Shown here: piece by piece, positions 27,300-59,863 of the stretch
How positions within the stretch are numbered: position 1 is the stretch's first letter
Layout: each line of letters starts with the position of its first letter
From: Candidatus Kaiserbacteria bacterium
GTDB lineage: Bacteria; Patescibacteriota; Minisyncoccia; Phycocordibacterales; Phycocordibacteraceae
NCBI GenBank assembly: GCA_016194455.1
Contig: JACQBN010000018.1
Span: 10,669-74,668, forward strand
Reading direction: 5' to 3'
Length of the DNA: 64,000 nt
Translations under genes and position numbers: made by a program
Notes under the pieces: model-generated
Database searches by the model: none
Told to the model about the DNA's origin: nothing
The model's input: the letters and a program-made list of their open reading frames with translations, nothing else

Positions 27300-27325
27300 T
27301 TGACACGAAAAAAATTCGCAGTAGA

Positions 27326-27720: not shown

Positions 27721-27739
27721 GCATGCTAAAATTATATCG

Positions 27740-28951: not shown

Positions 28952-28952
28952 T

Positions 28953-29438: not shown

Positions 29439-29441
29439 AAA

Positions 29442-29993: not shown

Positions 29994-29996
29994 TCT

Positions 29997-33692: not shown

Positions 33693-34112
33693 ATGCAATT
33701 CACCATCCATGCCGACGGAGGCGCGCGCGGCAATCCGGGGCCCGCGGGCGCCGGCGCAGTCATTCGCGACGAGCTTGGCACCATCATCGGCTCGGTTTCT
33801 AAATTTCTTGGGCATCAGACCAACAACTTTGCAGAATACGAAGCGGTAATCGCCGCGCTTGAAGAACTTTTTACTCTCGTGCCCGCAGGGAAACGCGCAG
33901 CGACGCAAGTGGTGGTGAAGATGGACAGCGAGCTTGTGGTGAAGCAGATGAATCGGGAATATAAAGTCAAACATCCGAACCTCAAGGCGCAGCACGCGCG
34001 GCTTATACAGCTGGCAGGCGCCTTCACCTCCGTCTCCTTCGTCCACGTCCCGCGCGAACAGAACAGCGACGCCGACCAGCTCGCGAACGACGCGATGGAT
34101 AGGGGAGCATGA
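33693..34112 (+). CDS. rnhA: ribonuclease HI
   Basis: MQFTIHADGGARGNPGPAG ... NNFAEYEA ... DADQLAN catalytic DEDD pattern. Start trimmed to MQFT. Confidence 0.8.
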   Translation: MQFTIHADGGARGNPGPAGAGAVIRDELGTIIGSVSKFLGHQTNNFAEYEAVIAALEELFTLVPAGKRAATQVVVKMDSELVVKQMNREYKVKHPNLKAQHARLIQLAGAFTSVSFVHVPREQNSDADQLANDAMDRGA

Positions 34113-35608
34113 GCGGGTTCGTCGCGGTGCTCGGCGGGTTCGCGAGCGGAGTGTTGCTCCGCTCACTTTTCGTACTGGGCTGGCCGGTCATTGTGTTTGT
34201 TTTGCTGTTGGCAGCGCTCTGCGGCGCTGCGGCGTTCCTCCAGCCGCGCCGAGCGAGTACGCTCGGCGCGGTATTTTTTATATTCCTTGCACTCGGGATA
34301 GTGCGCGCATCGCTTGCCGACACGCCGCTCCCCACGCCCTTCGCGGCGAGCGTCAAGGAACGCGTTTCCTATGAGGGCATCGTTGTCGCCGATCCGGACC
34401 TGCGCGACGCGAACCAGAGTGTTGAAGTCCGCGTGCGGCAGGGCGACGCTTCAACAATCATGTTGGCGATTGCTTCGCGCACCCCGATCGTGCGCGTGGG
34501 CGAGCGCGTGCGCGTCTCCGGCACGCTTGAGGCGCCCGAGGCGTTCGCGGATGATAACGGCCGCGTATTTCATTATGATAAATATCTGGAGCGCGAGGGA
34601 GTACGCTTTATACTCAACTTTTCTTTCATCCGCGTGGAGGCGCCCGCGCCCTGGTACTCGCTGCCGGCTGCGCTTGCACGGGTAAAGCACACATTCCTCA
34701 ACGGCATTGCGGCGACTCTGCCCGAGCCCGATGCGTCCTTGGCCGGCGGCGTTGTGATTGGCGGGAAGTCGGGGCTCGGGAGCGATTTGCAGAGGGCATT
34801 TGCACGCTCTGGCCTCGTGCAGATCATTGTGCTCTCCGGCTACAACGTGATGGTCGTCGCCGAGTGGGTGATGTACGGCGTTGGCCTGTTCGCTCTACCG
34901 CGCCGATGGTCGGCGGCTGCGGGGGTTCTCGCCCTGCTTCTCTTCGTCGGGGTCGCGGGTGCGTCCGCTACCACGCTTCGCGCCGGGCTTATGGCGCTCA
35001 TCGCGCTCTACGCTCGGGCGACCGGCCGCTCCTACGCGGCCGGTCGCGCGCTCCTCGCCGTCGTCCTCCTCATGCTGCTTTATAATCCGCTCCTGCTTGC
35101 GTTTGATCCTGGCTTCGGGCTGTCGGTGGCGGCGACTGCGGGTCTCATTTGGCTTGCCCCGCGCATCGAGCCTTTATTTTCATTCGTGAAAAATCTTTTC
35201 TGGAAAAACGCGATTGCGACGACGCTTGCCGCACAAGTTGCCGTGCTCCCGCTCCTTCTTTACGACACCGGCACTCTCTCCTTGGTAGCTATCCCCGCCA
35301 ACCTGCTTGCCATGCCGCTCGTGCCTGCGGCAATGGCGTTCTCCGCGCTCGCAGGCCTCGCGGGAATTCTTTTCAGCGCCATCGCGCCCTTGCTCGGCAT
35401 CGTTATTGCGTTCCCCGCGTATCTCGCCATGCGATTCCTCGTCCTCCTTGCAACCGGGAGCACGGCACTCCCGTTTGCCGCGTTCATCCTTCCCGCATTC
35501 CCTTTTGTGCTCGTGCTTGCCGCCTACGCCGCACTTATTTTCTTAGCTTCGTCAAAACGTTTCTCCACGACGCTCCAGTTGAGGTTCGCGAAGAATGCGT
35601 CTACGTAA
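34109..35608 (+). CDS. comEC: ComEC/Rec2 DNA-uptake channel protein (no C-terminal beta-lactamase domain)
   Basis: DUF4131-like N-terminus plus polytopic competence domain. ORF ends before any metallo-beta-lactamase domain. Confidence 0.8.
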   Translation: MSGFVAVLGGFASGVLLRSLFVLGWPVIVFVLLLAALCGAAAFLQPRRASTLGAVFFIFLALGIVRASLADTPLPTPFAASVKERVSYEGIVVADPDLRDANQSVEVRVRQGDASTIMLAIASRTPIVRVGERVRVSGTLEAPEAFADDNGRVFHYDKYLEREGVRFILNFSFIRVEAPAPWYSLPAALARVKHTFLNGIAATLPEPDASLAGGVVIGGKSGLGSDLQRAFARSGLVQIIVLSGYNVMVVAEWVMYGVGLFALPRRWSAAAGVLALLLFVGVAGASATTLRAGLMALIALYARATGRSYAAGRALLAVVLLMLLYNPLLLAFDPGFGLSVAATAGLIWLAPRIEPLFSFVKNLFWKNAIATTLAAQVAVLPLLLYDTGTLSLVAIPANLLAMPLVPAAMAFSALAGLAGILFSAIAPLLGIVIAFPAYLAMRFLVLLATGSTALPFAAFILPAFPFVLVLAAYAALIFLASSKRFSTTLQLRFAKNAST

Positions 35609-39127: not shown

Positions 39128-39553
39128 CTAGCCGGTGCGTTTGGGGGCGAAGCGGCCGCCGAGGACGATGGCGAGCGTGACGACGCTGTAGATGATGCCG
39201 AGGAGGCGCGCGGCGCCCTCGCGCGAGAGCTCGGTGCCCACCGGCATCGGGATCGGGAAGACGAAGACGAGGAGGGCGGCGGCAATCGGGACGAAGTAAT
39301 AGCTAAACTTAAGCCACCTCTTGAACTCTGTTTCGCTTGCGAAAAAGAGGACAGCCGCGACCAGCGCGAGCCACTCGCCAATGGAGAGAAGAGGCAGGCC
39401 AACATTCACACCAGTATCAACTTGGCAGATCCAAGAGACATTGTCCGCGCCACGACAAAGTCCATATGGTAAGGGGTTGGCGAAAAAAGTGCCGACAAAA
39501 TAAAAAACTGCGGCGATAAGAAGGAGTGAGAGTTTTAGATAGATATTCTTCAT
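39128..39553 (-). CDS. hypothetical polytopic membrane protein
   Basis: 4 hydrophobic segments. No motif. Confidence 0.45.
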   Translation of the reverse strand: MKNIYLKLSLLLIAAVFYFVGTFFANPLPYGLCRGADNVSWICQVDTGVNVGLPLLSIGEWLALVAAVLFFASETEFKRWLKFSYYFVPIAAALLVFVFPIPMPVGTELSREGAARLLGIIYSVVTLAIVLGGRFAPKRTG

Positions 39554-42450
39554 GGGCTGAGCAGACCCACTAGTTGTAGCATGAAGAGGGCCTGCGCTTG
39601 TGTGATCTGCTTGCCCGACTGTGCGTTAATCAAGCTCTGCAGATTGCTCAAGGCGCCCCGGAGCACTTCCTTTTTGCTGCCAAGATTCGCCTCCACTTTG
39701 TCGAGCGCCTTGCTGAGATCGGTTTTGACCCCCTGCGCTGCGCCTAGCGTATTGATATACGAGCGCAGGTAGGCAATCAGCTGGGTCGGCGAGAGTACGG
39801 GAGCTCCTGGGGTGTAGGTGAAGTCGCTTGAACCGTTGCCGTCTTCGTCTACCGAAACCGCACCCACGGTGCCGTTACTGACCGAGAACGTAGCGGTGGT
39901 GGAGGCGATAAGCGGAATATTGCGGAAGGAGACGGTCGTGCTCGCCGAGCCGTCGGCCTGTTCCGCGCCAACGTTCAAGGTCGCGTAGCCGCCGGCGTAG
40001 GCCTGCATCGAGATCGTGTAGCTCCCGCCGGCGGGCAGATAGAGATACTCCTCGTCGCCGAAGGTCTGCACCGAGCTGCCCGGTACGTCCTCAAGGAGAC
40101 CGGTAAAGTCGGTCCCGGGCATCGGTAGAATCCCCGTTCTGTTCCCGCTCGCGTCAGTTGCGACAATGTTCACGGGCGAGCGGGTACTGATTATGGTAAT
40201 TGGATTTAATCCGCCTGGCGGTCTAGTCGATGAAATAAATGACCCGAGAGAATTTTTGCCTTCAAGAATAGATTCGACGATGTTTTGAATTGGAGAGGCA
40301 GCGGTCAAGTTTTGATGAACAATATTTTTTCTAGTCGCGTGGAAAAACGCTGAAGTGTCAAAATAAGCTTTACCTGCAGTATCCCCAAGCGCGCTGGCGT
40401 CGATGACGGTGTCGTCGCCGTCCTGCGTGTTGACCGGGGCGTGCTCGAGCACTTGCCTCACGCCGCACGAGAAGACGCCGGAGACCGAATCGCAGGAATA
40501 TTTCGTGCCGGTGGTGTAGGCGAGGGTCTTGAGCGTCTTCTGCCCCCAACCGGCGATGGCGGTCACCGCGATGCCTGACGGCGGCGTCCAGGCGTCGAGC
40601 TGCGCGTGGGTCGCCTGGGCCTTTTGCAGCAGCGTGGGCGAGAGAGCGAGAGGCGTCGTGAGCGCGCCCGGATCGCCCACCGTTGCATCAAGATGAGCGG
40701 GGTCGCTTAAGAAGTTCGCGAGCGCGCTGTAGTTGGTGGTTGTTGCGCCGTAACTCTCCGCGTACTTCCCCGCGAGCGAGGTCGCGTCGAAGGTGGCGAC
40801 CGGGTCGGCAATGCGAGCGAAGTACGCGGGCGCCGGTAAGAGGCCGAAGGCGCCCGGCATCGTGCTCGCGACGGCGCGCGCAGCCGTTTGATTGATAATG
40901 AGACTCGGAATATCGGCGAAGTTGTCGGCGTGGAGGAGCGCGCCAATGCTCGAAGGCGTGCCGTATTGCGGCGTGCCGATCATGATGATGCGGTCGATAT
41001 ACTTGGGCGCGTCCGCCCCGAGCGTGATTGCAAGCGCCTTGGCGAGGAGGCCGCCGTTACTGTGCGCGACGATAGTCACCTTGCCGGTGGCCGAGTTGGA
41101 CGCCATCTGCTTCAAGACATCCGCGAGATAGACGCGCGTTATCGAGCCGTCGGGCTGTTCCGTCAGCGTGCCGTTCTGCACAATGTCGAAGACGTCGTAG
41201 CGCCAGTCGTAGGGGTACGCGCGCCACTCCTTGATCGTGCCGGTGGCGACAAGGCCGTCCATAAACTGCTCGAAGGTGCCGTACACCTCGAGCGTGTCGA
41301 AGAGGCCGGCAATGGTACTCGCGCTCCGGTTATGCGCCTGGATTGAGTCCACGATATCTTTTGTGTAAATCTGGGCCTTGCTCGAGCCGTCGGCGTTGAG
41401 CGCAAGCGGCGGGAGATCGGTGGAGAGCGTGGGCTCCCAGAGCTGGTGCTCATTGCCAAGCAAGGTATCACGCGTGTATAAACGGCTTCCTTCAATCCCA
41501 GGCAGGAAGAGGACGCTGGAAACCTTTGGCGCTCCACAGCCGCTCGCGAAGGAGTCGCAGGCGAGGAAGGGAAGGACCGACACCATCGTTGGTTCGTTGA
41601 AGCCGACATTCACAAGGCCGTTCGGGTTCAGCGCCGCCCAATACGGGCCCGACGCGTCGCCCCACCAGTTGTTCTCCATATGGACGGAGAAGGTGCCGAG
41701 ATAGTAATCGAGCGCCGCACCGCGCAGGCCGTCTATGCTGCTTTGGTGCATGAGCAGTGTTGTGGGGGAGGGGCTGCTGCTCGTCCACAAGCGGGCTATG
41801 TAGTTCTCGCCTTGGAAGAGATCGTTCTCGAGATCGAGGAGGCCTTGTGAGCCCATATAGACCTGATAGCCAGGAACGTTTTCAAAAACGCTGTCGGCTA
41901 TAAGCACCCGTGCGCCCGTGAGTACATAGACATTGCCGACATATCCGCCAGAGCTTTGTACTGAAAGGAGGGTGGAGTTTGCATCGCCGGCCACTCCCGC
42001 GTAGCGGAAGCGGATATGCTCGAGCGTGCTCGTGGCGTCCGTACCGGCAAACTGGATTGCGCCCCAGCGATTCTGCTCTGGATCCGTGGCAGTGCCGTCG
42101 CCGTTCGTGTCGCCGCCCACGCTGTCGTCGGCGATGGAGGTGAAGACGACGGTGCTTGAATCGGAGGTGCTCCCGGCATTGAGAGTGCCGTTTACTTCAA
42201 TGGCAGCCTCGCCGAAGGGGTTGTTAAAAAACTTGACGACCACGCCCGGATCAATGGTGAGCGTAGCGCCCGGACTAATCGTAAGCGGCTCCAACACCTC
42301 AATCGGACTCCCGGCAGTCGTCCACTCGGTGTCGGCACTGACGACGACCGGGGCGACGGTCGCCGCCTCCGCGCTCTGCGCGGAGGCGGCGACACCAACG
42401 CACAAAATGGAGCACAAAAGAAAAAGCGTGCGAGCGCGCATCGGGCACAT
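39550..42450 (-). CDS. giant secreted protein: N-terminal beta-helix-like domain + alpha/beta-hydrolase (lipase/esterase, GHSxG) domain
   Basis: Track ORF 39550..42738 trimmed to signal peptide M(CP)MRARTLFLLCSILCVGVAASAQSAEA. Gly/Thr/Asp-rich repeats typical of right-handed beta-helix. VLFLPGIEGSRLY plus nucleophile elbow GHSNGGLLAKA. Confidence 0.7.
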   Translation of the reverse strand: MCPMRARTLFLLCSILCVGVAASAQSAEAATVAPVVVSADTEWTTAGSPIEVLEPLTISPGATLTIDPGVVVKFFNNPFGEAAIEVNGTLNAGSTSDSSTVVFTSIADDSVGGDTNGDGTATDPEQNRWGAIQFAGTDATSTLEHIRFRYAGVAGDANSTLLSVQSSGGYVGNVYVLTGARVLIADSVFENVPGYQVYMGSQGLLDLENDLFQGENYIARLWTSSSPSPTTLLMHQSSIDGLRGAALDYYLGTFSVHMENNWWGDASGPYWAALNPNGLVNVGFNEPTMVSVLPFLACDSFASGCGAPKVSSVLFLPGIEGSRLYTRDTLLGNEHQLWEPTLSTDLPPLALNADGSSKAQIYTKDIVDSIQAHNRSASTIAGLFDTLEVYGTFEQFMDGLVATGTIKEWRAYPYDWRYDVFDIVQNGTLTEQPDGSITRVYLADVLKQMASNSATGKVTIVAHSNGGLLAKALAITLGADAPKYIDRIIMIGTPQYGTPSSIGALLHADNFADIPSLIINQTAARAVASTMPGAFGLLPAPAYFARIADPVATFDATSLAGKYAESYGATTTNYSALANFLSDPAHLDATVGDPGALTTPLALSPTLLQKAQATHAQLDAWTPPSGIAVTAIAGWGQKTLKTLAYTTGTKYSCDSVSGVFSCGVRQVLEHAPVNTQDGDDTVIDASALGDTAGKAYFDTSAFFHATRKNIVHQNLTAASPIQNIVESILEGKNSLGSFISSTRPPGGLNPITIISTRSPVNIVATDASGNRTGILPMPGTDFTGLLEDVPGSSVQTFGDEEYLYLPAGGSYTISMQAYAGGYATLNVGAEQADGSASTTVSFRNIPLIASTTATFSVSNGTVGAVSVDEDGNGSSDFTYTPGAPVLSPTQLIAYLRSYINTLGAAQGVKTDLSKALDKVEANLGSKKEVLRGALSNLQSLINAQSGKQITQAQALFMLQLVGLLSP

Positions 42451-42456
42451 GATACT

Positions 42457-42885
42457 ATGATGCTGATGGAATACCAGGTTCCGCAGTTCATCGAGGTCGA
42501 GGACAAGATCGTCGGCCCACTTACCCTGCGGCAGTTCATCTACCTCGCGGGCGCGGGCGGGCTCTGCGTCATTTTCTTCTTCCTCCTGCCCCTTATTTTC
42601 GCTCTTATCCTCTCGGTTCCAGTCGCTGCGCTCGGGGCTGCGCTTGCCTTCTATCGGGTGAATAGCAAACCATTCATCGAGGTGCTCGAGTCGGCCTTTG
42701 GCTACTACACCTCCTCGCATCTCTTCCTCTGGAAGCATCAGGAGCCGAAGGCCGGCGCCGCAGCGGCGCCGGCCCCAACCACCGCTCCCTTGCCCGCGCG
42801 CGGTACGCCGCGGCTCACGCGCGGCAAGCTCTCGGAGCTCTCCTGGTCGCTCGATGTCAAGAAACCAGAGTCGCTCAAGCCCTGA
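42457..42885 (+). CDS. PrgI-family (VirB3-like) T4SS membrane protein
   Basis: N-terminus MEYQVPQFIEVEDKIVGPLTLRQFIYLAG followed by TM helices is the PrgI family signature. Pro/Ala-rich C-terminus. Confidence 0.6.
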   Translation: MMLMEYQVPQFIEVEDKIVGPLTLRQFIYLAGAGGLCVIFFFLLPLIFALILSVPVAALGAALAFYRVNSKPFIEVLESAFGYYTSSHLFLWKHQEPKAGAAAAPAPTTAPLPARGTPRLTRGKLSELSWSLDVKKPESLKP

Positions 42886-42887
42886 CC

Positions 42888-43544
42888 ATGGCCACCAAAC
42901 CCGCTGGCGCGACGCAGAACTTTGTTCCGATCAAGGAGATCCGGAACGGCATTGTCGTGCTGAAAGACGCCGGCTATCGGGGGATTCTCATTTGTTCTTC
43001 TATCAACTTTGGCCTTAAATCCGCGGATGAGCAGCGCGCGATTACGCTTGGATTCCAGAACTTCCTCAACACGATAGACTTCTCGATCCAGATCGTCGTC
43101 AACTCGCGCCGCATGGATCTGCGGCCCTATCTCGCCCTCCTCGCCGAGAAGGCGCCCGAGCAGCGCACCGAGCTCATGCGCATCCAGCTGCGGGAGTACC
43201 AGGAGTTCATCCGCTCCTTCGCCGAGCAGTCCAACATCATGACGAAATCTTTCTATATCGTCGTACCGTACGCGCCGCGCGTCGAGCTCGGAAAGACCGC
43301 AGCGGGGCTCCTCGGCCGGCGCCAGAACGCATCGGGCGCCGCTGCGGTGGCCGAGAGCTCCTTCGAGGAAGATCGTGCGCAGCTCGAGCAGCGTCTCGCG
43401 CTCGTCTCTGGCGCGCTCTCGGGGACGGGGGTGCGCGCAATCCCGCTTGGGACCGAGGAGATCATCGAGCTCCTCTATCGCTCCTTCAATCCGGGTGAGC
43501 TCGAGAATCCGATCCGCCTTGAATCCTACTATGGCACTTCTTGA
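42888..43544 (+). CDS. VirB4/TraC/PrgJ-like T4SS ATPase, N-terminal domain fragment
   Basis: FVPIKEIRNGIVVLKDAGYRGILICSSINFGLKSADEQ matches VirB4 family N-terminus. Ends 14 nt into the next ORF in another frame. Confidence 0.6.
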   Translation: MATKPAGATQNFVPIKEIRNGIVVLKDAGYRGILICSSINFGLKSADEQRAITLGFQNFLNTIDFSIQIVVNSRRMDLRPYLALLAEKAPEQRTELMRIQLREYQEFIRSFAEQSNIMTKSFYIVVPYAPRVELGKTAAGLLGRRQNASGAAAVAESSFEEDRAQLEQRLALVSGALSGTGVRAIPLGTEEIIELLYRSFNPGELENPIRLESYYGTS

Positions 43545-45348
43545 TTTCATCAACCGCAGGAAGCAAGAGGAGCCGAAGGTCGTTCCGGTCTTGCCGAGAG
43601 ACATTTACAAACAAGGCGCGCTCGACCTCGTCGACACCATCGCGCCCTCCGCGCTTAAGATCGGTGCGCGCGAAATAGAGCTCGGCGAGAAGTTCGTCCG
43701 CTCTTTCTATACTATCTCGTATCCGCGCTTCCTCGCTGACGGCTGGTTCTCGCCCATTGTCAACTTGGACCAAGTGCTTGATATCGCGATCTTCATCCAT
43801 CCCGTCGAGACCGCCTCCGCGCTGCGCGACTTCCAAAAGAAGGTGGCGGAGGTGCAGAGCCAGATCAATGAACGAGAAGCGCGCGGGCTTGTGCGCGATC
43901 CTTTGCTCGATACGGCGTACCAGGATCTCGAGAGCCTGCGCGACAACTTGCAACAGGCGCAGGAGAAACTCTTTGAGGTTGGGCTCTACCTCTCGCTGTA
44001 TGGCGATTCTAAAGAGGCGATAGACAAAATAGAGGGTGACATCCGCGGCATCCTCGATGCGAAGCTCGTCTACACCAAGCCCGCGCTTTTCCAACAAGAA
44101 CAAGGATTCCGTTCCTGTCTCGCGCTCGGCACCGACGAGCTCCTCGTCAATTCAAAGCTGAACTCTTCGCCGCTCTCCTCGATCTTCCCTTTTGTCTCGT
44201 TTGACTTGACCTCCGACCGAGGAATTCTGTACGGGATAAACAGACACAACTCTTCGCTCATCCTCTTCGACCGCTTCTCCCTCGAGAACTATAATTCTGT
44301 CGTCTTCGCGAAGTCGGGCTCGGGGAAGTCCTACGCGACCAAGCTTGAGATCTTGCGCTCGCTGATGTTCGGCACGGATGTCATCGTGATTGACCCTGAG
44401 CGCGAGTACGAGCAGCTCGCGGAGGCGACCGGCGGCCGCTCCTTCCATATCTCGCTCTCAAGCGAGCACCACATCAATCCGTTTGATCTGCCCCCGGTCA
44501 AAGAAGACGAGGACCCGAAGGACATTCTCCGGAGCAACATCATCAATCTCGTCGGTCTCTTCCGCATCATGCTGGGCGGTCTCTCGCCGGAAGAAGACGC
44601 GATTATCGACCGCGCCATCAGCGAGACCTACGCGCTCAAGGACATCACCGGCGACGCCGACTTCACCGGCGCAGAGGTACCTTTGCTCGCCGACTTTGAA
44701 CAAGTGCTCTCGGGGATGGAGGGGAGTGAATCCTTGGTCCAGCGTCTTTCCAAATACACGCAGGGGACGTGGGCGGGCTTTATGAATCAGCCGACCAATA
44801 TTGATATCAACCAGCAGTTCGTCGTCTTCTCCGTGCGCGACATGGAGGATGAGTTGAAGCCGGTCGCGATGTATGTGGTCACGCACTACATCTGGAACGC
44901 CATACGCCATGAGCTCAAGAAGCGTCTCCTCGTGATCGACGAGGCGTGGTGGATGATGAAGAGCGAAGACACCGCTTCCTTCCTCTATTCCGTCGCGAAG
45001 CGCGGAAGAAAGTATTATCTCGGAGTCGCGACCATCACCCAGGACGTTGAAGACTTCCTTAAGAGCCCCTACGGCCGGCCGATCCTCACGAACTCCTCCA
45101 TCCAACTGCTCCTCAAACAGTCGCCGACGACCATTGATCTCCTGCAGCAGACCTTCAATCTCACGGAAGAAGAAAAATACCTGCTGCTTGAGGCAGGAGT
45201 CGGCGAGGGGCTCTTCTTCGCGGGCCTCAAGCACGTCGCGATAAAGATCGAGGCGAGCTACACCGAGGATCAAATCATCACCTCCGACCCGTCCCAGCTC
45301 TTGGCGATAAAGGCGGAGAAGGAGCGCTATGCCTCTCAACAAAAGTAG
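43531..45348 (+). CDS. VirB4/TraC/PrgJ-like T4SS ATPase, C-terminal ATPase domain (frame-shifted relative to N-terminal fragment)
   Basis: Walker A VFAKSGSGKSYATK, Walker B LLVIDEAWWMM, C-terminal ITSDPSQL. Start set at MALLDF overlapping the upstream fragment; the track ORF starts at 43375. Confidence 0.75.
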   Translation: MALLDFINRRKQEEPKVVPVLPRDIYKQGALDLVDTIAPSALKIGAREIELGEKFVRSFYTISYPRFLADGWFSPIVNLDQVLDIAIFIHPVETASALRDFQKKVAEVQSQINEREARGLVRDPLLDTAYQDLESLRDNLQQAQEKLFEVGLYLSLYGDSKEAIDKIEGDIRGILDAKLVYTKPALFQQEQGFRSCLALGTDELLVNSKLNSSPLSSIFPFVSFDLTSDRGILYGINRHNSSLILFDRFSLENYNSVVFAKSGSGKSYATKLEILRSLMFGTDVIVIDPEREYEQLAEATGGRSFHISLSSEHHINPFDLPPVKEDEDPKDILRSNIINLVGLFRIMLGGLSPEEDAIIDRAISETYALKDITGDADFTGAEVPLLADFEQVLSGMEGSESLVQRLSKYTQGTWAGFMNQPTNIDINQQFVVFSVRDMEDELKPVAMYVVTHYIWNAIRHELKKRLLVIDEAWWMMKSEDTASFLYSVAKRGRKYYLGVATITQDVEDFLKSPYGRPILTNSSIQLLLKQSPTTIDLLQQTFNLTEEEKYLLLEAGVGEGLFFAGLKHVAIKIEASYTEDQIITSDPSQLLAIKAEKERYASQQK

Positions 45349-45907
45349 CCCGCGCCCCAAGGTAATGACCTGGAAGAAGGCACTGCCCATTCTTGCTCTC
45401 GCGGGGATTTTCGATGCGATCCGCTTCGCATTTGAACAATTTTGGCTCTTCGGGCCCATTCTCGTCGGCACTGCCACAAACAGTTTCTTTGGTGGTGGGG
45501 CGATCGGAGGTGTGGCGGGAAGCATTGCTGGCAAAACATCTTTTCTCGCGGGCCCCGAGCTTGAGGTTTTCGGCATCGTGATGGCAGCCGTGGTCGGACT
45601 CGCGGGGTGGGGAACAATCGGCTTTTTACTTCTTGTATTCAATCAGCGCTTTTTTAAAGCGAACGCATCAAATACCCTCTGGTTCCTCTCTAGTCTGGTC
45701 GTGAGCGAGATACCGATCGTCGGGAGCGTCCCCGCACTTTTCGCTGCGACCTTCAAGGGCTATCATTCGCAAATAAAAAGAGAAAAAGCGGCGCTGAAGC
45801 GCTGGGAGAAAGAGCGAACCGAGATGCAAAAGAGAAATCGGGACGCGCGGCTCGCCGAGCAGTATGCAGCGGCAGAACAAAATGAGCTGGCAGAGGCGAT
45901 ATACTAG
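45329..45907 (+). CDS. polytopic membrane protein in T4SS-like operon (VirB6/TrbL-role candidate)
   Basis: ~4 TM helices with Gly-rich loop, charged coiled C-terminus. Likely real start MTWKK at ~45365. Confidence 0.45.
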   Translation: MPLNKSSPRPKVMTWKKALPILALAGIFDAIRFAFEQFWLFGPILVGTATNSFFGGGAIGGVAGSIAGKTSFLAGPELEVFGIVMAAVVGLAGWGTIGFLLLVFNQRFFKANASNTLWFLSSLVVSEIPIVGSVPALFAATFKGYHSQIKREKAALKRWEKERTEMQKRNRDARLAEQYAAAEQNELAEAIY

Positions 45908-45911
45908 AAGC

Positions 45912-46907
45912 ATGAGTCTTTGCGCGCAGCTAGCGTTCTTCGCGGCAATTACCGCGGCTCTGCTCCTGCCCGCAAGCGCGCTCGCGCAATCTCTTGTAGT
46001 CCCGTCGGGGCTTACTCTGACAGTCTCCCCGCAGTACCCGACGCCCTACGGGGAAGTCCTTATTACTCCGCTCTCGACGACTTTTGATCTCGTCAACGCC
46101 TCGTACACGCTCTCGGCCAACGGGAACGTCGTTTATCGCGGCAACGCGAAGCCCTTCGCGGTGGCCCTCGGCGCGGCAGGCAGCGTCACGAGCGTGAAGG
46201 CAATGGTCACGGGCAGCGGTGGCAGCGTGAGCCAGAGCATCTCAATCCGCCCGCAGGATGTTGCGCTCGTCGCCGAACCACTCTCGTCAGTCCCGCCGCT
46301 CTACCCGGGCAAGGCGCTCGTTCCGCTTGAGGGGAGCGTGCGGGTCGTCGCGGTTGCGAATTTGCGCTCGAAGGCCGGCAAGCAGGTTGATCCTTCGGCG
46401 CTCTCCTACGACTGGACGCTCGACGGCACCGAGCTCGCGGGCTCCTCCGGCATCGGCAAGAGCTCGATCACCGTCGCTTCGCCGCTCCAGTATCGCGCGG
46501 GCAGAGTCTCGGTCGTCGTGAAGAGCCAGGATGGTGCGCTCGCGAGCGGCGACTTGCTCTCGCTCACGCCCGTAGAGCCCTCGGTGCGTGTCTACGAGGA
46601 CGATCCTCTGCTCGGCGTGCGCTTCGAGCGGGCGCTTGCGGGCTCCTACGCGCTTGCAGGAGCAGAGACCACCCTCTATGCGGTCCCGTACTCCTTCCCG
46701 CTTGCGCTCGGCGCGCCCGTCCTCCACTGGTTCCTCAACGGCAGCGCAGCGCAGACCGGCGACTTCGTTACGCTGCGGCCCACGGGGAGCGGAGGAGGGA
46801 GCGCAAATGTCTCCCTGACCGCTACTGCGGGGGACTTCGCGCGCGCGAGCGCTGTGCTCTCGCTTACCTTCAACGCAAACGCGAGCGCTACTCTCTTCGG
46901 ACTATGA
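45912..46907 (+). CDS. secreted protein in T4SS-like operon
   Basis: Signal peptide MSLCAQLAFFAAITAALLLPASALA^QS. Beta-rich. Start placed after the upstream stop. Confidence 0.45.
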   Translation: MSLCAQLAFFAAITAALLLPASALAQSLVVPSGLTLTVSPQYPTPYGEVLITPLSTTFDLVNASYTLSANGNVVYRGNAKPFAVALGAAGSVTSVKAMVTGSGGSVSQSISIRPQDVALVAEPLSSVPPLYPGKALVPLEGSVRVVAVANLRSKAGKQVDPSALSYDWTLDGTELAGSSGIGKSSITVASPLQYRAGRVSVVVKSQDGALASGDLLSLTPVEPSVRVYEDDPLLGVRFERALAGSYALAGAETTLYAVPYSFPLALGAPVLHWFLNGSAAQTGDFVTLRPTGSGGGSANVSLTATAGDFARASAVLSLTFNANASATLFGL

Positions 46908-48004
46908 AAAAGATAATTTTCGCGGCCGGATTTATTCTAAGCTTCACGGCATTCGCTCCAGCGGCATTCGCCGAGGGCGATATTGGCCAGGCGGATTGGC
47001 CCTGCTTCGACGCCATCGACCCGACCCAGCCGACAACCTGCGATACTGCAAACGGGTATCACTTCGTTCCGCTTGCGCCCATCCCCGGCCTCACCGCAGA
47101 CCAGAACGGCACCCCATTTATTGGTACGCCGGATCTCCCGAGCTTCTTGAACAACCTGTATCAGTACCTGATCGGGTTTGCGGCTGCGCTCGCGGTGATT
47201 TATGTCATCTGGGGAGGACTAGAAATTTCCACCCAGGACAGCGTGAGCAAGCAGAGCGATGGCCGCAAGCGCATTGAGGGCGCACTCTTCGGCCTCGCGC
47301 TTGTGCTCGCTCCCTATCTCGTCTTCTACGTCATCAACCCCGCGATCGTGAATCTCTCGCTCAATCTCCCCGCGCTCCAGACCCAAGGCGGCACGTTTGG
47401 GACGGGTGTGAACTCCCCGACGCAGTCAACGACAGCGGCAAACGGAGTGACTACGACGGTAACAGGCACGTACCTCCAGACCGCGCACTTCGCCTCAAAC
47501 GACCAAACCAACAACAATAACGCCCGAGACGCCTGGGTAAGCAGCTGTAACTCCTCCGGCGGAGTCGGGTACGCCGCGCAAGACAGTGGGTGCGGATCGA
47601 ACGTTGTCCCTGCCGGAGGAAAAACGACCTGCGTCTCCACAAGCGACGCCATTGCTAAATGCGCAACGTTTTCAAAGTCCGCATATAACTTCGTCAACAT
47701 TGGTGCGGCCTGCAGTGGTGTTATCAGCTGTTTTGCGTCAATCGATTTACAGCCCTTAAACACTGACGCTTCTGCTGTCTCGGGCTTCGTGGGGGCGTGT
47801 TCCTCGGATGGAGGATACGCGTGTATAGCAGCGGGTACTGGTTTAAGCATACCCCACGGTTTGGGCCTCCGAGAGCTGAGCGCGTGCCCGGAGGCAATAA
47901 CGGGGCTAGCAGGAAACGCTAGTGGAAAATGTTACCAAGCCGGTCTCTTCTGCGCCCGGACTCAGGGGGCTAGTCAGTGCGCGGCCAACACTACGTTGCA
48001 TTAA
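46904..48004 (+). CDS. VirB2/TrbC-like pilin-type protein with Cys-rich C-terminal domain
   Basis: Signal peptide, then two hydrophobic helices (LYQYLIGFAAALAVIYVIWGGLEI ... GALFGLALVLAPYLVFYVINP), then ~170-aa domain with ~14 Cys. ATGA overlap upstream. Confidence 0.45.
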   Translation: MKKIIFAAGFILSFTAFAPAAFAEGDIGQADWPCFDAIDPTQPTTCDTANGYHFVPLAPIPGLTADQNGTPFIGTPDLPSFLNNLYQYLIGFAAALAVIYVIWGGLEISTQDSVSKQSDGRKRIEGALFGLALVLAPYLVFYVINPAIVNLSLNLPALQTQGGTFGTGVNSPTQSTTAANGVTTTVTGTYLQTAHFASNDQTNNNNARDAWVSSCNSSGGVGYAAQDSGCGSNVVPAGGKTTCVSTSDAIAKCATFSKSAYNFVNIGAACSGVISCFASIDLQPLNTDASAVSGFVGACSSDGGYACIAAGTGLSIPHGLGLRELSACPEAITGLAGNASGKCYQAGLFCARTQGASQCAANTTLH

Positions 48005-48007
48005 ATT

Positions 48008-49213
48008 ATGCGCCGGACTTTAATCATCATCGCGACAGTGGTAGTCCTCGCTGGGGTTGGGGCGTGGGTGTACTTCTCCTTCTTCGCGGGCTCTGCCGGA
48101 GTCGCGGTCGCTCCGGCGGGGAATGCTGGTTTGCCGATCGCGGGGCAGGGAACTCAAAACGGTTCTGCCCCTTCGGGCGCAACTGCTGGAGCGCCTTCGG
48201 CGCCCGCTGCGCCAGTGAAAGTCTCTCCGCGCCTGGTACAGATTGATAAAGGTCCGGTCGTCCCGGGCGAAGTCGCACGAGATATTAAAATTTCTTCCAC
48301 AACGAATGACGTTGTGGTTTCTTATGTCGAGCGCCAGAGCGGCAACGTCTTCTCCTACTTCGTGAACGCGGGCACGCTCACCCGGACCAGCAACCGCACG
48401 CTTCCGGGCATCGAGGAAGCCTCGTGGCTTCCCGATGCCTCGCTTGCCTTCGTACGCTACCTCTCGGGGACAAACTTCAGCATCACCAACACGTACGCGC
48501 TCCGAGCCGATGGCTCAAGCGGGTTCTTCCTGCCGCAGAATCTCGCCGGAGTCTCGGTCTCTTCAACAACGATTCTCGCGCTTGCCTCGGGCGGTAACGG
48601 CTCCGTAGTCTCTCTGGTAAAGAGCGACGGTACCCGCGCGACCCAGGTCTTCACGACGCCCCTCTCCTCGATCCGTATTTCGTTTGCGGGCAAGAACCAG
48701 TACCTCGTCGTCACCAAGCCCTCCGCGACACTGCCGGGTGATGCGTATCTTGTGGACAGCGCAGGACACTTCTCGCGCGTCGCGGGGCCGCTCTCGGGCC
48801 TCGTCGCGCTCGCGAGTCCTTCAGGCACATGGGCGCTCGTGAGCTCGGCTGCAAACGGCACCATGCGTCTTGAGCTGGTGAACGCTTTGACCGGCTCGGC
48901 GCTGCCGCTCCCGGTCGCGACCATCGCGGATAAGTGCGCTTGGGCTCTTGATGAATCCGCGGTCTACTGCGGCGTGCCAATCTCGCCGAGTGCGGCATAC
49001 TCCTACCCCGACGACTGGTATCAGGGCGCTGCGCATTTCTCTGATCGGATCTGGAAAATAGAAGTCACTGGGCGCTATGCCGAGCTCGTGCTTGATTTCA
49101 ATAAAGAAACGAAAGGGCTCTTGGACGCAGAGGCGCTCGCGCTTGACCCGCAGCGCTCCGCGCTCGCGTTTCTCAACAAAAACGACGGCTCGCTCTGGTC
49201 GTATCAGCTCTGA
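48008..49213 (+). CDS. N-terminally TM-anchored extracytoplasmic protein in T4SS-like operon
   Basis: MRRTLIIIATVVVLAGVGAWVYFSFF anchor, then Ser/Thr/Gly-rich beta region. Confidence 0.45.
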   Translation: MRRTLIIIATVVVLAGVGAWVYFSFFAGSAGVAVAPAGNAGLPIAGQGTQNGSAPSGATAGAPSAPAAPVKVSPRLVQIDKGPVVPGEVARDIKISSTTNDVVVSYVERQSGNVFSYFVNAGTLTRTSNRTLPGIEEASWLPDASLAFVRYLSGTNFSITNTYALRADGSSGFFLPQNLAGVSVSSTTILALASGGNGSVVSLVKSDGTRATQVFTTPLSSIRISFAGKNQYLVVTKPSATLPGDAYLVDSAGHFSRVAGPLSGLVALASPSGTWALVSSAANGTMRLELVNALTGSALPLPVATIADKCAWALDESAVYCGVPISPSAAYSYPDDWYQGAAHFSDRIWKIEVTGRYAELVLDFNKETKGLLDAEALALDPQRSALAFLNKNDGSLWSYQL

Positions 49214-49929
49214 GGCCGAAGTGCGCGGCGCACATACCATTCCTGCAAGGCACCGGCGAGGTTCGTGGTAATGAAGTAGAGCGCGATGGCGCTCGAGGTC
49301 GTGTAGGAGATCACACCGATAAGAACAGGGAAGACGAACCGCATCTGCATCCCCATCACTCTCTGGACATCGCCTTGCATGCCAGTCCCGAGAGCGGGCT
49401 TCATCGTGCCCGAGAGCGCGAGGTGCGCCTGGAGAAATTGAGAGGCTCCGGAGAGTGCGGCCAGTACGATTGACTTACCGGCGACCGAGATGAGTCCCAG
49501 AAAGAGGAGAGAGATGTGCTGTGGCACGGGCGTGAAGGCGTAGAGCCGCGCGGTATCAATCGAAGAAAACGGCTCGTAGCGAAAGACCCAGTAGAGCGCG
49601 AGGAGCACCGGAATCTGGATGAAGACGGTCAGGATGCTCGCGAAAGGATTCACCCGCCGCTCGCGATAGAGTGCGAGCGTCTCAAGCGCTTCTTTTTCTT
49701 TGTCGCCCTTATGTTTCTCTTTGAGTTCCTTCACGTGCGGCTCAAGGTCTTTCATCGCGCGCTGGGTCCGCGCTGCCGAAAGCGAAAAAGGAAGGAGGAG
49801 GAGGCGAATGGCAACGGTGAGGAGGATGACCGCGACGCCGACGTCCCCGCCCGGGACGAGGGCGACGAGGGCGACGAGCGCGTTATAGAGCGGATTGTAG
49901 AACGCCGCGTGGAAGAGGGTACTGATCAC
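49204..49929 (-). CDS. yidC: membrane protein insertase YidC (short form)
   Basis: 5-TM 60-kDa-IMP core. Conserved synteny rpmH-rnpA-yidC. Confidence 0.8.
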   Translation of the reverse strand: MISTLFHAAFYNPLYNALVALVALVPGGDVGVAVILLTVAIRLLLLPFSLSAARTQRAMKDLEPHVKELKEKHKGDKEKEALETLALYRERRVNPFASILTVFIQIPVLLALYWVFRYEPFSSIDTARLYAFTPVPQHISLLFLGLISVAGKSIVLAALSGASQFLQAHLALSGTMKPALGTGMQGDVQRVMGMQMRFVFPVLIGVISYTTSSAIALYFITTNLAGALQEWYVRRALRPQS

Positions 49930-50399: not shown

Positions 50400-50489
50400 G
50401 GTAAAAAGTTATGCACACCATACTAACAGGTTCTCCCCGAAGCGCCAGGATTTGCAGAATCGGCCCGACGCGTATAATCCCCTCTATCT
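50400..50489 (+). promoter_or_regulatory. rpmH/dnaA divergent promoter region with DnaA-box-like TTATGCACA and TATAAT -10 element
   Basis: TTATGCACA at ~50409-50417 (1 mismatch to TTATCCACA). TTGCAG-N15-TATAAT at ~50452-50478, 11 nt before the dnaA ATG. Confidence 0.3.
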
Positions 50490-51839
50490 ATGGAGAAAGA
50501 GAATCCTCGCGAACTGTGGGAGTACGTGCTCAGCCAGGTGGAACTCTCGATATCCCCCGCGAACTTCAACACCTGGTTTCGCGATAGCCACATCGTCAAG
50601 GTAGAGGAGGGGATCGTGTACGTGGGCGTCCCGAGCCAGTTCTTCAAGGATTGGTACTTGAAGAAGTTCCATACGCTTCTGCTCAAGATCGTCCGCGACG
50701 TTTCCTACGAATTCCGCACCGTGGAATACCTCATCGTGAAGGACGAGCGCCGGAAACCCGCCAAAGAACCTCGGCACGACCGCAACGCTCCGGAATTGCC
50801 GCTCGCGGACTTCTATATCAACAAGAGCGACAATCTGAATCCGCGCTACACCTTCGAGAACTTCGTTATCGGCGCCTTTAACAACCTCGCATGCGTTGCC
50901 GCGCGCGCTGCCCTGGAGCGTCCTGGCATCACCTACAACCCGCTCTTCATCTACGGAGAGACGGGCCGTGGCAAGACGCATCTCATCCAAGCAATCGGCA
51001 ATCAATACAAGAAGCAGTACCCGGGGCGGAAGGTTTTCTATCTCACGTCTGAAAAGTTTGTTGTTGACTATACCGATTCGCTGCAGACGGGGAGCGCCAA
51101 CCGCTTCAAGGACAAGTATCGGCAATACGATTTGTTGATTATGGACGACGTGCAGTTCCTCTCCAAGAAGGAAAAGAGTGAGGAAGAACTCTTTCACCTC
51201 TTCAACACGCTCCACGACACGAACAAACAAATTGTTTTTTCTTCCGATCGGTCCCCTGTGGCGATTCCCGACATCGCAGAGCGGCTGAAGGGTCGCCTCG
51301 CGAGCGGTATGACGGTGGACATCGGGGAGCCTGACCCGGAATCGCGCATGGAGATTATACGTCGCAAAGCGTCGCTTCACGGCATCATCCTCTCGGACGA
51401 GGTTGTGGAGTATGTCGCAGCGAACACGACCGGCTCCATCCGCGAACTCGAGGGAATGGTGAACAGTATTGTTTGTCACGCGCAGGTGAAGGGGGCGGCG
51501 CCCGATATTGCAGAAGTGCGACAGTCGCTCCGCTCTTTCGCGCGACCGCAGAAGACAATCTCGGTGAAGAACGTGGTGGGGAAAGTCGCGGAGTTCTACG
51601 GGATTGAAGAGGAAAGCATCTACGAGAAGACGCGGCGGCGAGAGGTCGTGCGCCCGCGCCAGATCATCATGTATATCCTGCGCGAAGACTTCAGTATTTC
51701 GTATCCGACGATTGGAACGAAGCTCGGAGGGAGAGATCACACAACTGTTATCCACTCTTGTGAGAAGATAAAGCGTGAAGTGGTTGTGGATAACGACTTG
51801 GCGAAGGACATCCAGAGTATCCGCACTTTGTTGGTATAA
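50490..51839 (+). CDS. dnaA: chromosomal replication initiator DnaA
   Basis: GETGRGKTHL Walker A, LIMDDVQFL, C-terminal GGRDHTTVIHSCEKI DNA-binding domain. Confidence 0.95.
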   Translation: MEKENPRELWEYVLSQVELSISPANFNTWFRDSHIVKVEEGIVYVGVPSQFFKDWYLKKFHTLLLKIVRDVSYEFRTVEYLIVKDERRKPAKEPRHDRNAPELPLADFYINKSDNLNPRYTFENFVIGAFNNLACVAARAALERPGITYNPLFIYGETGRGKTHLIQAIGNQYKKQYPGRKVFYLTSEKFVVDYTDSLQTGSANRFKDKYRQYDLLIMDDVQFLSKKEKSEEELFHLFNTLHDTNKQIVFSSDRSPVAIPDIAERLKGRLASGMTVDIGEPDPESRMEIIRRKASLHGIILSDEVVEYVAANTTGSIRELEGMVNSIVCHAQVKGAAPDIAEVRQSLRSFARPQKTISVKNVVGKVAEFYGIEEESIYEKTRRREVVRPRQIIMYILREDFSISYPTIGTKLGGRDHTTVIHSCEKIKREVVVDNDLAKDIQSIRTLLV

Positions 51840-58183: not shown

Positions 58184-59863
58184 TTATACCCGCGGGAGAT
58201 CGACGGTTGCGGCGACTTCGGCAAGCGAGGTGATGCCCGCGAGCGCTTTGACGATTCCGTCTTGCGCCATCGTAAGGTAGCCCTGCTTCGCTGCCGCTTT
58301 CACGATTTCGCCCGAGGGAGGATTATCGCGGAGGAACTGCGCGAGCTCGTCGTCCATGAATATCGCTTCGTAAAGCCCGATACGCCCTTTGTAGCCAGTC
58401 TCCCCGCTTTCGGGGGAGTCGGGGCCGGGCTCCCAGACGGTTTCTCTTTTTTCGGGTATCAGTGTTTTATCGGCAAGTGAGGAGAACACTTTTTCAATCA
58501 TCTTTTTCTCCCCCGTGGTGAGCGGACGCTCTTTCCGTTTGTTCGGGTCGAGCTTGCGCACCAGCCGCTGCGCCATCGAGACGGTGATCGCGGAGCCGAA
58601 TGACTTCGGATCCGCGCCGAGATCAACGAGGCGGGGGAAGGTCCCCGCGGCGTCGTTGGTGTGGAGGGTGGAGAAGACGAAGTGCCCGGTCAAGGCCGCT
58701 TGGATCGCGATGTTGGCGGTGTCGCCGTCGCGGATCTCGCCCACCATAATCACGTCCGGGTCCTGCCGGACGATGGAGCGCAGCCCTTCGGCGAACGTAT
58801 ATTTTTTCCCTTCCACCTGCGTCTGCACAATACCCTCAAGGTGGTACTCCACCGGGTCTTCAATGGTGATCACTTTTATCTCGGGGGTATGGATCTCGCG
58901 GAGAAATGAGTAGAGCGTCGTTGTCTTGCCGCTCCCCGTCGGGCCGGTGGTGAGGAGCATCCCGTTTGCCCTCCTGATCTCGGCCTCGAGCCGCGCGAGG
59001 AGCTTCGCGGGGATGCCAAGCTCGCGGAATGAAATCTTCGTCGTCTCAGGGTCGAGGATCCGGAGCACGATCGACTCGCCGTAGTTGCCGGGGATGAAAG
59101 AGGCACGGATCTCCACCTGCATCTCTCCGCGGGTGACGCTGAAGCGCCCGTCCTGCGCGCGGTCTGCGATATTCAGCTTCACGCCCGCAAGGAGCTTGAT
59201 GCGCGAGTTGAGGAGACGGTAGGTCGCGGGGTCGAAGAAGTAAGCGTCGGTCAAGAGGCCGTCGATCCGGAGCCGCAGTTTGGTCCGCGCCTCCTCGGGT
59301 TCAAAATGGATGTCGGAGGCGCGAAGCCCTGCCGAGCTTGCAAAGAGCGCTTCTAGGATGCGCGAGATTCGGTCGAGTGATTTCTCCGCGGCCGCGGCGT
59401 CGAGCGCGCTCCGGAGCGCCGAGAGTTTGGTCGTCGCGCTCGCAAGCGCGGTGTAGGCCTCTTGCGGAATTTCAAAAACGCCGGCCCTCGATTCTGTTGC
59501 GAGCGAGAGGTCATGGTAGCGCCCGAGTGCCTTCTCCAAACTTTTCTTTGATACCAGAAATTGCTTCACGACAAAACCGCCCTGCTCCAGCTCTTTGAGG
59601 AGCGGCGCAAGCGCCGCGTTCCCCGGGTTATGCACCGCGAGCGAGAGATGCTTCGCGGTCCGGTCGAAGGGGACTGCCTCAGCCCTCTTCGCCTTCGCCT
59701 CATTCGTTGCCCGGAGCGCCTCGGCATCTATTTGCTTCAGCGAGAGGTCGGCATAGGGCATGCCATATTTCTCCGAGAGGATGCGCGCGACATCCTCCTC
59801 CTCACGCTCGCGCACGCCCGCGAGCGCCGCTTCCTCAGTTCTTGGGTCAAACGGGAGATCCAT
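58184..59863 (-). CDS. second GspE/PilB-family secretion ATPase (with N-terminal GspE_N-like domain)
   Basis: Walker A TGPTGSGKTTT, Asp/His boxes, MVGEIRD. Confidence 0.85.
   Translation of the reverse strand: MDLPFDPRTEEAALAGVREREEEDVARILSEKYGMPYADLSLKQIDAEALRATNEAKAKRAEAVPFDRTAKHLSLAVHNPGNAALAPLLKELEQGGFVVKQFLVSKKSLEKALGRYHDLSLATESRAGVFEIPQEAYTALASATTKLSALRSALDAAAAEKSLDRISRILEALFASSAGLRASDIHFEPEEARTKLRLRIDGLLTDAYFFDPATYRLLNSRIKLLAGVKLNIADRAQDGRFSVTRGEMQVEIRASFIPGNYGESIVLRILDPETTKISFRELGIPAKLLARLEAEIRRANGMLLTTGPTGSGKTTTLYSFLREIHTPEIKVITIEDPVEYHLEGIVQTQVEGKKYTFAEGLRSIVRQDPDVIMVGEIRDGDTANIAIQAALTGHFVFSTLHTNDAAGTFPRLVDLGADPKSFGSAITVSMAQRLVRKLDPNKRKERPLTTGEKKMIEKVFSSLADKTLIPEKRETVWEPGPDSPESGETGYKGRIGLYEAIFMDDELAQFLRDNPPSGEIVKAAAKQGYLTMAQDGIVKALAGITSLAEVAATVDLPRV

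Follow-up and report, generated by a model that had tools for sequence, protein, structure and literature searches.

Organization of the gene cluster

In this study, we analyzed a stretch of 64,000 nucleotides (the window) from contig JACQBN010000018.1 of a Candidatus Kaiserbacteria bacterium (assembly GCA_016194455.1, positions 10,669 to 74,668), which carries a gene cluster related to type IV secretion systems (T4SS). The cluster consists of seven tightly packed, co-directional genes on the + strand between positions 42457 and 49213, with gaps or overlaps of 2-20 nt. The genes and their products are:

42457..42885, + strand: PrgI-family (VirB3-like) small membrane protein; 142 aa; PF12666, 48 bits
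42888..43544, + strand: TrsD-like protein, soluble; 218 aa; VirB4 N-terminal module by NCBIfam models
43531..45348, + strand: VirB4-family ATPase; 605 aa; NF045971, 373 bits; Walker A GSGKS, Walker B DEAW
45329..45907, + strand: small polytopic membrane protein; 192 aa; about four hydrophobic segments by hydropathy
45912..46907, + strand: secreted protein with three immunoglobulin (Ig)-like domains; 331 aa; signal peptide, predicted fold
46904..48004, + strand: VirB2/TrbC-type T4SS pilin; 366 aa; PF18895, 25.8 bits; signal peptide
48008..49213, + strand: transmembrane (TM)-anchored 7-bladed β-propeller (type-II membrane protein); 401 aa; predicted fold

A first-pass annotation of this DNA had described six co-directional open reading frames (ORFs) joined by 4-nt or short overlaps. 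Co-direction and ORF coordinates were correct, but the number of genes is seven, as the 218-aa gene had been missed or merged into VirB4. Likewise, the packing is indeed tight, but three junctions are gaps of 2-4 nt and the longest overlap amounts to 20 nt. The PrgI gene is separated by 2 nt from the 218-aa gene, which overlaps the VirB4 gene by 14 nt in a different frame. The VirB4 gene overlaps the gene of the 192-aa membrane protein by 20 nt, and a gap of 4 nt follows before the gene of the signal-peptide protein, which in turn overlaps the pilin gene by 4 nt. A gap of 3 nt lies between the pilin and propeller genes, and the propeller gene overlaps the convergent yidC by 10 nt. The signal-peptide ORF had been given a start at 45864; the ORF exists, but its most probable start is 45912, which is also the start given in the NCBI record HY091_01795. 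Products of the window are 100% identical to two NCBI proteins from a 79-kb contig of a Candidatus Kaiserbacteria MAG, HY091_01795 and HY091_01805.

One genome per species was scanned, and relatives of the ATPase turned out to be encoded at more than 527 loci, of which the best 80 (L001-L080) were taken. All of them belong to metagenome-assembled genomes (MAGs) of Patescibacteria (Kaiserbacteria, Paceibacteria, Parcubacteria), and their VirB4 proteins share 74-91% identity with the window protein over the full length. Synteny was judged only in loci long enough to show neighbouring genes. The domain content of the window was determined by Pfam scans of about 50 ORFs in all, including about 40 outside the cluster.

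PrgI and a VirB4 ATPase encoded by two genes

The N-terminus of the first gene product had been assigned to the PrgI family, and this assignment holds. MEYQVPQFIEVEDKIVGPLTLRQFIYL is found in the ORF 42457-42885, and the protein matched PF12666 with 48 bits against a cutoff of 27 bits, next to a weak Pfam match to TcpE. Hydropathy indicates a hydrophobic hairpin at about residues 24-68. The true start of the protein may be the fourth codon (MEYQ..., 42466). The gene is located two genes upstream of VirB4, and an orthologue with 38-73% identity is present in 78 of the 80 related loci.

The 605-aa protein contains the GSGKS and DEAW motifs on which its annotation as a VirB4/TraC-type ATPase was based, and both motifs are invariant in 36 VirB4 orthologues. 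The mean column identity of VirB4 across 36 species is 79%. VirB4 profiles were matched as well, with 373 bits for NCBIfam NF045971 (VirB4-like, CD1110 family; cutoff 325 bits) and Pfam matches to P-loop_TraG (PF19044), AAA_10 (PF12846) and DUF87 (PF01935); the TraC-F-type, VirB4_CagE and other NCBIfam models stayed under their cutoffs. The comparison with PDB entries returned the VirB4 C-terminal domain 4ag5 with an E-value of 7.9e-51, and TrwK with 2.9e-6. The best curated models for the ATPase are those of monoderm (MPF_FATA-type) VirB4 families.

The ATPase covers positions 183-734 of the 752-position CD1110 VirB4 model, and the segment before it is matched by the product of the upstream gene. 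Residues 10-128 of the 218-aa protein correspond to positions 2-121 of the CD1110 model (E 9.2e-6), and residues 7-130 to positions 102-236 of the Mbov_0397 VirB4 model (E 1.5e-8), so that the 218-aa protein and the ATPase are collinear along a full-length monoderm VirB4 model. According to these alignments, the 218-aa protein is TrsD-like and a homologue of the module at the extreme N-terminus of full-length monoderm VirB4, and VirB4 appears to be encoded as two polypeptides universally across the genomes examined. The TrsD/TraD model NF041427 itself gave 12.8 bits (E 0.077; cutoff 200 bits). No Pfam match was obtained for the 218-aa protein, and a sequence comparison of its family with the PDB returned nothing below E 0.9. 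The family has 37 invariant columns across 37 sequences.

A separate ORF of the 218-aa type is kept in 80/80 related loci and hence in all 81 genomes examined. At its junction with VirB4, a stop codon and then an ATG are found in each of the 80 relatives, with 0-12 nt between them in most cases, and all three relative frames occur. Therefore, the junction reflects neither a sequencing frameshift nor programmed frameshifting, and a frameshifted single VirB4 could be ruled out. An internal duplication, with the 218-aa protein resembling the N-terminal part of the ATPase, was rejected as well, since hhalign gave a probability of 0.2% and the 218-aa protein aligns to the preceding VirB4 segment.

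The pilin and its variable tail

The first-pass annotation had recognized a VirB2/TrbC-like two-helix pilin with an extra Cys-rich domain, which agrees with the positional orthologues: 28/33 match PF18895 (T4SS_pilin), and nine also match PF04956 (TrbC/VirB2). The pilin has a signal peptide and contains the conserved motif F-V-P-L-x-P-I-P-G. Its two-helix core, at about residues 81-151, is visible in the alignment and is 30-70% identical across species. On these grounds, the protein belongs to the VirB2/TrbC class. The C-terminal domain of about 215 aa, with 12 Cys residues, is fast-evolving. Among the orthologues, the tail is between 2 and 213 aa long and mostly contains an even number of Cys residues, and tails can barely be aligned even where the VirB4 proteins are 90% identical.

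Two orthologues carry enzyme domains fused to the VirB2-like core (L066:13296-15035 and another, probably L068:12857-13849). One of the fused domains is a Peptidase_S8 subtilase (E 5.6e-18) and the other a YkuD L,D-transpeptidase (E 6e-12).

Membrane protein, Ig-repeat protein and propeller

Four ORFs of the cluster had been left without an assignable family. This is still true for the membrane protein with four TM segments (4-TM protein), but not for the pilin (PF18895/TrbC), the signal-peptide protein (three Ig-like domains) or the TM-anchored protein (propeller). Structure prediction and fold comparison provided folds for two of the four, three Ig-like domains and a 7-bladed β-propeller. 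The AlphaFold2 (AF2) models of the Ig-repeat and propeller proteins are confident and have fold matches.

The 331-aa protein consists of a signal peptide and three tandem Ig-like/FN3/PKD-like β-sandwiches at about residues 34-123, 142-218 and 224-320 (AF2 model and fold matches). Its extreme C-terminus (...F-G-L) is invariant, and this C-terminal peptide might dock onto a partner. The 401-aa protein was correctly described as TM-anchored and extracytoplasmic. Its AF2 model and fold matches comprise a TM helix (residues 2-26) and, after a disordered linker rich in Ala, Pro and Gly (about 27-68), an extracytoplasmic 7-bladed β-propeller with an invariant Cys pair (C310/C321) and an invariant Y-P-D-D-W-Y-x-G motif.

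For the 192-aa protein, hydropathy supports the first description as a 4-TM membrane protein, with about four hydrophobic segments and a charged C-terminal tail. It matched no Pfam or NCBIfam model, including those of VirB6/TrbL, and may be an analogue of VirB6 or PrgF. Homologues are detectable only in close relatives (30-53% identity). In about 63 of about 75 related loci, a divergent hydrophobic protein with a length of 110-280 aa occupies the slot between VirB4 and the Ig-repeat gene; the slot protein is much longer in L003 (634 aa) and L010 (553 aa). Pfam scans of 64 such positional analogues gave only scattered sub-threshold matches and nothing consistent. A match of the slot protein L052:11906-12757 to Pre-toxin TG (PF14449) was discarded as a single case that is probably due to chance (22.9 bits; cutoff 23.5 bits). 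In about ten relatives (L046, L050, L051, L053, L054, L060, L063, L068, L076 and L079) the slot is empty; thus, the small membrane protein is dispensable or encoded elsewhere.

Genomic context and inheritance of the cluster

Downstream of the cluster follow yidC(-), rnpA(-), dnaA(+), dnaN(+) and a gene for a class-A penicillin-binding protein (PBP, -). The order PrgI, TrsD-like, VirB4, (small membrane protein), Ig-repeat protein, pilin, propeller, yidC(-), rnpA(-), dnaA, dnaN, PBP(-) is shared by essentially every sufficiently long locus of the 80, and cluster and replication genes are thus syntenic across these Patescibacteria. The identity of VirB4 to the window protein has a median of 78% and a minimum of 74%, that of DnaA a median of 74% and a minimum of 49%, and VirB4 is more conserved than DnaA in 58/59 loci, a comparison that is biased because the 80 loci were ranked by VirB4 similarity. 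For the other proteins, the median identities to the window protein are:

TrsD-like: 57%
PrgI: 51%
DnaN: 49%
YidC: 45%
Propeller protein: 37%
Pilin: 37%, with about one third of the length aligned
Ig-repeat protein: 34%

Such conservation of VirB4 is unusual for a secretion ATPase and suggests, from the sequences compared, an indispensable role. The GC content of the cluster (0.56-0.62) equals that of its flanks, without any compositional anomaly, and the rest of the window is of housekeeping character, with genes for enolase, PGK, TIM, NusA, ClpP, RNase Y, RuvABC and PolA, a type IV pilus (T4P) operon and ComEC. Fixed synteny, VirB4 conservation, matching GC content and housekeeping surroundings together show that the cluster is a vertically inherited core machine and not a mobile element.

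The same holds for the gene content. Pfam scans of about 50 window ORFs revealed no relaxase (a search for oriT was not made), and no VirD4 or other type IV coupling protein (T4CP) was found within the 64 kb, as already stated in the first-pass annotation. A survey of 3,035 Patescibacteria genomes (Quinonero-Coronel et al., 2025; PMC12102498) reported VirD4-like/T4CP genes in most of them, usually at a large distance from virB4. The first-pass annotation also listed no integrase in the window; one tyrosine recombinase is present, but none lies near the cluster. The proposal of a chromosomal apparatus instead of a conjugative element is therefore well supported by fixed synteny in 80 relatives and by the lack of a relaxase, T4CP or nearby integrase. 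Equally, PrgI and VirB4 exceed their profile cutoffs, TrbC/VirB2 is matched by pilin orthologues, and neither relaxase nor VirD4 flanks the cluster.

The recombinase is encoded at 11818-12756 (+), 30 kb from the cluster among housekeeping genes, and is the only one in the window. It combines Phage_int_SAM_1 and Phage_integrase domains, is of XerC/D type and most likely represents a chromosome dimer resolvase, not the integrase of an element.

Conservation does not extend to the upstream side of the cluster, where close relatives have an M50 protease gene immediately before PrgI. In the window, two genes at 39128-42450 (-) are inserted between these two. They code for a membrane protein of 141 aa and a secreted protein of about 967 aa, and both are missing at that position in close relatives. 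The larger protein has a signal peptide, an LCAT/PGAP1-like α/β-hydrolase domain and a weak match to the type VI secretion phospholipase Tle3 (E 0.018). It could be a lipase that is specific to this lineage and acts on host membranes, and it looks Sec-dependent and not like a T4SS substrate. The ATGs of this gene and of PrgI are divergent and 6 bp apart, so that the promoter of either gene has to be located within its neighbour.

A few kb upstream of PrgI, the more distant relatives (L022-L080) have an M23 peptidase gene grouped with uvrD and ksgA. Here, the M23 peptidase with two LysM domains (4944-5885, +) is also located beside uvrD and ksgA (2819-4732 and 1684-2496), at a distance of 37 kb; a rearrangement has moved the group away from the cluster in this genome. 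M23/LysM proteins were counted among the VirB1-like candidates associated with virB4 in Paceibacteria (PMC12102498).

The T4P operon (25554-31325) encodes PilB, PilC, an N-methyl pilin and two unassigned ORFs. ComEC is located at 34109-35608, and a second PilB-like ATPase at 58184-59863. With the T4P operon and ComEC, the window holds a competence/T4P route that is independent of the T4SS. The dnaA gene is located at 50490-51839. A search for DnaA boxes (9-mers with at most one mismatch) returned 10 in the window against 4.4 expected, of which only three are around dnaA (50409-51793); there was no clear GC-skew switch, and the exact origin was not located.

Proposed function of the cluster

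Taken together, the cluster is very probably the Kaiserbacteria/Paceibacteria version of the chromosomal Patescibacteria-clade T4SS. With similarly high confidence, we propose that it derives from monoderm (MPF_FATA) conjugation machinery, which lost its DNA-processing partners and became a core envelope machine located by dnaA. A reduced T4SS-like system typical for candidate phyla radiation (CPR) bacteria had been suggested before, in line with the finding that all 80 best relatives are Patescibacteria and that the arrangement is as in the published survey (PMC12102498).

By analogy to VirB3, VirB4 and VirB2 in other T4SSs, PrgI would tether the TrsD/VirB4 ATPase to the cytoplasmic membrane. 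The ATPase would pull the Sec-inserted pilin out of the membrane and polymerise a pilus or conduit across the single membrane and the wall. Potentially, the variable Cys-rich, disulfide-bonded pilin tail together with the Ig-like and propeller proteins forms the exposed, host-contacting part. Judging from the literature on Saccharibacteria and a cultivated ectoparasite, the apparatus might mediate contact-dependent transfer of macromolecules between episymbiont and host, and it is probably indispensable for growth. An orthologous cluster was found to be essential in Southlakia epibionticum by transposon sequencing (Tn-seq; Wang et al., 2023; PMC10633639), and tubular structures, possibly T4SS pili, were described at the parasite-host interface (bioRxiv 10.64898/2026.06.21.733656). 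Substrate and transport direction of the T4SS are unknown even in the cultivated model, and effector delivery or uptake of nutrients or nucleic acids were proposed (PMC11665869). It is tempting to hypothesize that the cluster serves effector or contact-dependent secretion, as the first-pass annotation had proposed.

Several points weigh against this overall reading of the cluster as a Patescibacteria-clade T4SS. No VirB6-like protein (at least five TM segments), VirB8-like (NTF2) protein, wall hydrolase or T4CP was found in the cluster, and the extracytoplasmic folds are Ig-like and propeller folds; it is therefore unclear how a channel forms. For the 4-TM protein, homology to VirB6 could not be detected, and the about ten related loci listed above lack it. 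With 25.8 bits, the window pilin itself stays 0.8 bits below the PF18895 cutoff of 26.6 bits, and subunits that each bear a tail of about 215 aa are not known to fit the packing of a VirB2-type pilus. Operon structure was deduced from gene spacing only, and a scan of 42000-49600 for promoters and terminators was no better than chance (one promoter-like sequence versus 1.7 expected, 10 terminator-like sequences versus 6.5 expected). The bias in the VirB4-DnaA comparison belongs here as well. Finally, essentiality and pili would be extrapolated to Paceibacteria from another class.

A less probable alternative is a nucleic-acid import machine resembling Helicobacter ComB or archaeal Ced. DNA or RNA of the host or the environment would then be drawn by the VirB4 motor and the pilus into a cell incapable of nucleotide synthesis. 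The lack of relaxase and T4CP in the window speaks against export of processed DNA, the T4SS was proposed as a nucleotide-acquisition route (PMC11665869), and VirB4 was linked to feeding on host RNA (bioRxiv 10.64898/2026.06.21.733656). The ATPase also has a weak, partial match to CedB (E 2.7e-8 over 70 residues, 33 bits); however, the NCBIfam cutoff is 700 bits and the match is confined to the generic P-loop region. No CedA-like or ComB-specific component or other partner family was identified in the cluster with Pfam and NCBIfam, nor was a nuclease or DNA-binding domain detected there, and a match of the propeller to YncE is one among hundreds of equally good propeller matches. Moreover, the window already has a separate competence route in the T4P operon and ComEC.

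It is rather unlikely that the cluster encodes an adhesion or attachment organelle only, that is, a VirB4-driven pilus with a variable Cys-rich head and with Ig-like and propeller proteins for host recognition, which translocates nothing. Such an organelle would explain why the cluster has no recognisable VirB6 or VirB8 channel parts and no T4CP, why adhesin-like folds (Ig-like repeats, β-propeller) are found outside the cell, and why species differ strongly in the pilin tail, which a determinant of host specificity would be expected to do. However, a full T4P system is present in the same genome, and in Saccharibacteria this is the type of system that experiments have tied to adhesion and motility. 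The extreme conservation of the ATPase points to a more basic function, and some T4SSs, e.g., Ptl and Brucella VirB, translocate without a T4CP (PMC12102498).

That the cluster is part or remnant of an integrative conjugative element, an ordinary Gram-positive-type conjugation module whose relaxase, T4CP and integrase lie outside the window or have decayed, is highly improbable: VirB4, PrgI and TrsD are homologous to MPF_FATA conjugation proteins and a tyrosine recombinase is present, but the latter is XerC/D-like and separated from the cluster by 30 kb of housekeeping genes, relaxases occur in only 103/3,035 surveyed genomes (PMC12102498), and the reading is essentially refuted by the same position next to yidC-rnpA-dnaA-dnaN in essentially all 80 species-level genomes, and also by composition, gene content and a VirB4 conservation above that of DnaA.

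Returning to the Patescibacteria-clade T4SS as the preferred explanation, one may tentatively speculate that in Paceibacteria VirB6, VirB8 and VirB1 are replaced by a lineage-specific extracellular module, although we consider this doubtful. The module would comprise the protein with three Ig-like domains, the tethered propeller and a pilin that presents a hypervariable disulfide-rich head on the pilus, and the choice of the host to be recognised or breached would depend on this head. A subtilase or L,D-transpeptidase domain would take its place in some species, as the fused sequences suggest. If true, a specificity or effector domain would reside on the major pilin itself, and the T4SS architecture would be a new one.

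The Patescibacteria T4SS is among the few machines thought to underlie the obligate episymbiosis of a very large part of bacterial diversity. Paceibacteria are the largest class, and in the genomes compared the cluster is as fixed and conserved as the adjoining replication genes. Systems of this kind have already been published (PMC12102498; PMC10633639). What this study adds is modest: folds were assigned to two of the conserved accessory proteins, VirB4 was universally found as two genes, and the tail of the pilin proved to be variable. The Ig-repeat and propeller genes are syntenic across 80 species, and the conserved partners are not the textbook VirB6, VirB8 and VirB1 but an Ig-repeat protein, a tethered propeller and a fast-evolving Cys-tailed pilin. 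These three proteins are concrete targets for structural and interaction studies of host engagement by ultrasmall cells.

Comparison with known systems

The diderm (MPF_T) systems Agrobacterium VirB and R388 Trw share with the cluster a two-helix VirB2-type pilin, a VirB3-like protein and the VirB4 motor. The cluster is without VirB5-B11 or an outer-membrane core, as expected for a monoderm envelope, and its VirB4 is much closer to the monoderm families than to MPF_T. Among the monoderm families, the VirB4 of Clostridioides CTn2 (CD1110, NF045971) is the best-scoring curated model; it is a single polypeptide on a conjugative transposon, in contrast to the two genes found here. The staphylococcal pGO1/pSK41 Trs and enterococcal pIP501 Tra systems (MPF_FATA, TrsC-TrsD-TrsE) have the same triad of VirB3-like protein, TrsD and VirB4 (PMC12102498), although the 218-aa protein does not reach the score of the TrsD family proper (12.8 bits, as given above). 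These systems differ in being plasmid-borne and conjugative, with relaxase, T4CP, VirB1-like hydrolases and a VirB8-like protein, and in having no VirB2-type pilins. In general, conjugative monoderm T4SSs (pCF10 Prg, pIP501 Tra, ICEBs1 Con, CTn2) possess a T4CP (VirD4/TcpA), which is absent from the 64-kb window, and a relaxase and a location on a plasmid or integrative conjugative element, whereas the cluster studied here has no relaxase in the window and keeps a dnaA-adjacent position that is fixed in 80 species.

The T4SS of Southlakia epibionticum ML1 (SEML1_0006-0019; PMC10633639) has the same order of a PrgI-family protein, a hypothetical protein of about 290 aa and a VirB4 of about 612 aa. 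PF18895 pilins and the lack of a recognisable relaxase or coupling protein are shared as well. The low locus tags suggest a place near the start of the genome record; the position of dnaA was not read. Only the Southlakia cluster has six small pilins, two very large VirB6/TrbL-like proteins, and NTF2-like (VirB8-like) and lysozyme-like proteins. The Kaiserbacteria cluster has no NTF2-like or lysozyme gene and instead encodes one pilin with a large tail, the small 4-TM protein, the protein with three Ig-like domains and the β-propeller.

The closest correspondence is found with the Patescibacteria-clade T4SS, which was described in 2,407 Patescibacteria assemblies (PMC12102498). In that study, Patescibacteria VirB4 forms a monophyletic clade nested in MPF_FATA; the identity of the window VirB4 to proteins of Patescibacteria MAGs (74-91%) and its matches to monoderm models are consistent with membership in this clade, but do not amount to a phylogenetic test. 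TrsD, VirB3/PrgI and VirB2-like pilins were reported near virB4, homologues of VirB6, VirB8 and VirB1 were rare, and dnaA, dnaN and rnpA were found close to the T4SS cluster in Paceibacteria (PMC12102498). Nothing essential differs from the cluster described here; the other neighbouring genes are unannotated in that study. Shared are a VirB4 with best matches to MPF_FATA-type models, the adjacent TrsD and PrgI/VirB3 homologues, a PF18895/PF04956 pilin, the lack of a relaxase and of a nearby T4CP, and the chromosomal location by dnaA, dnaN and rnpA.

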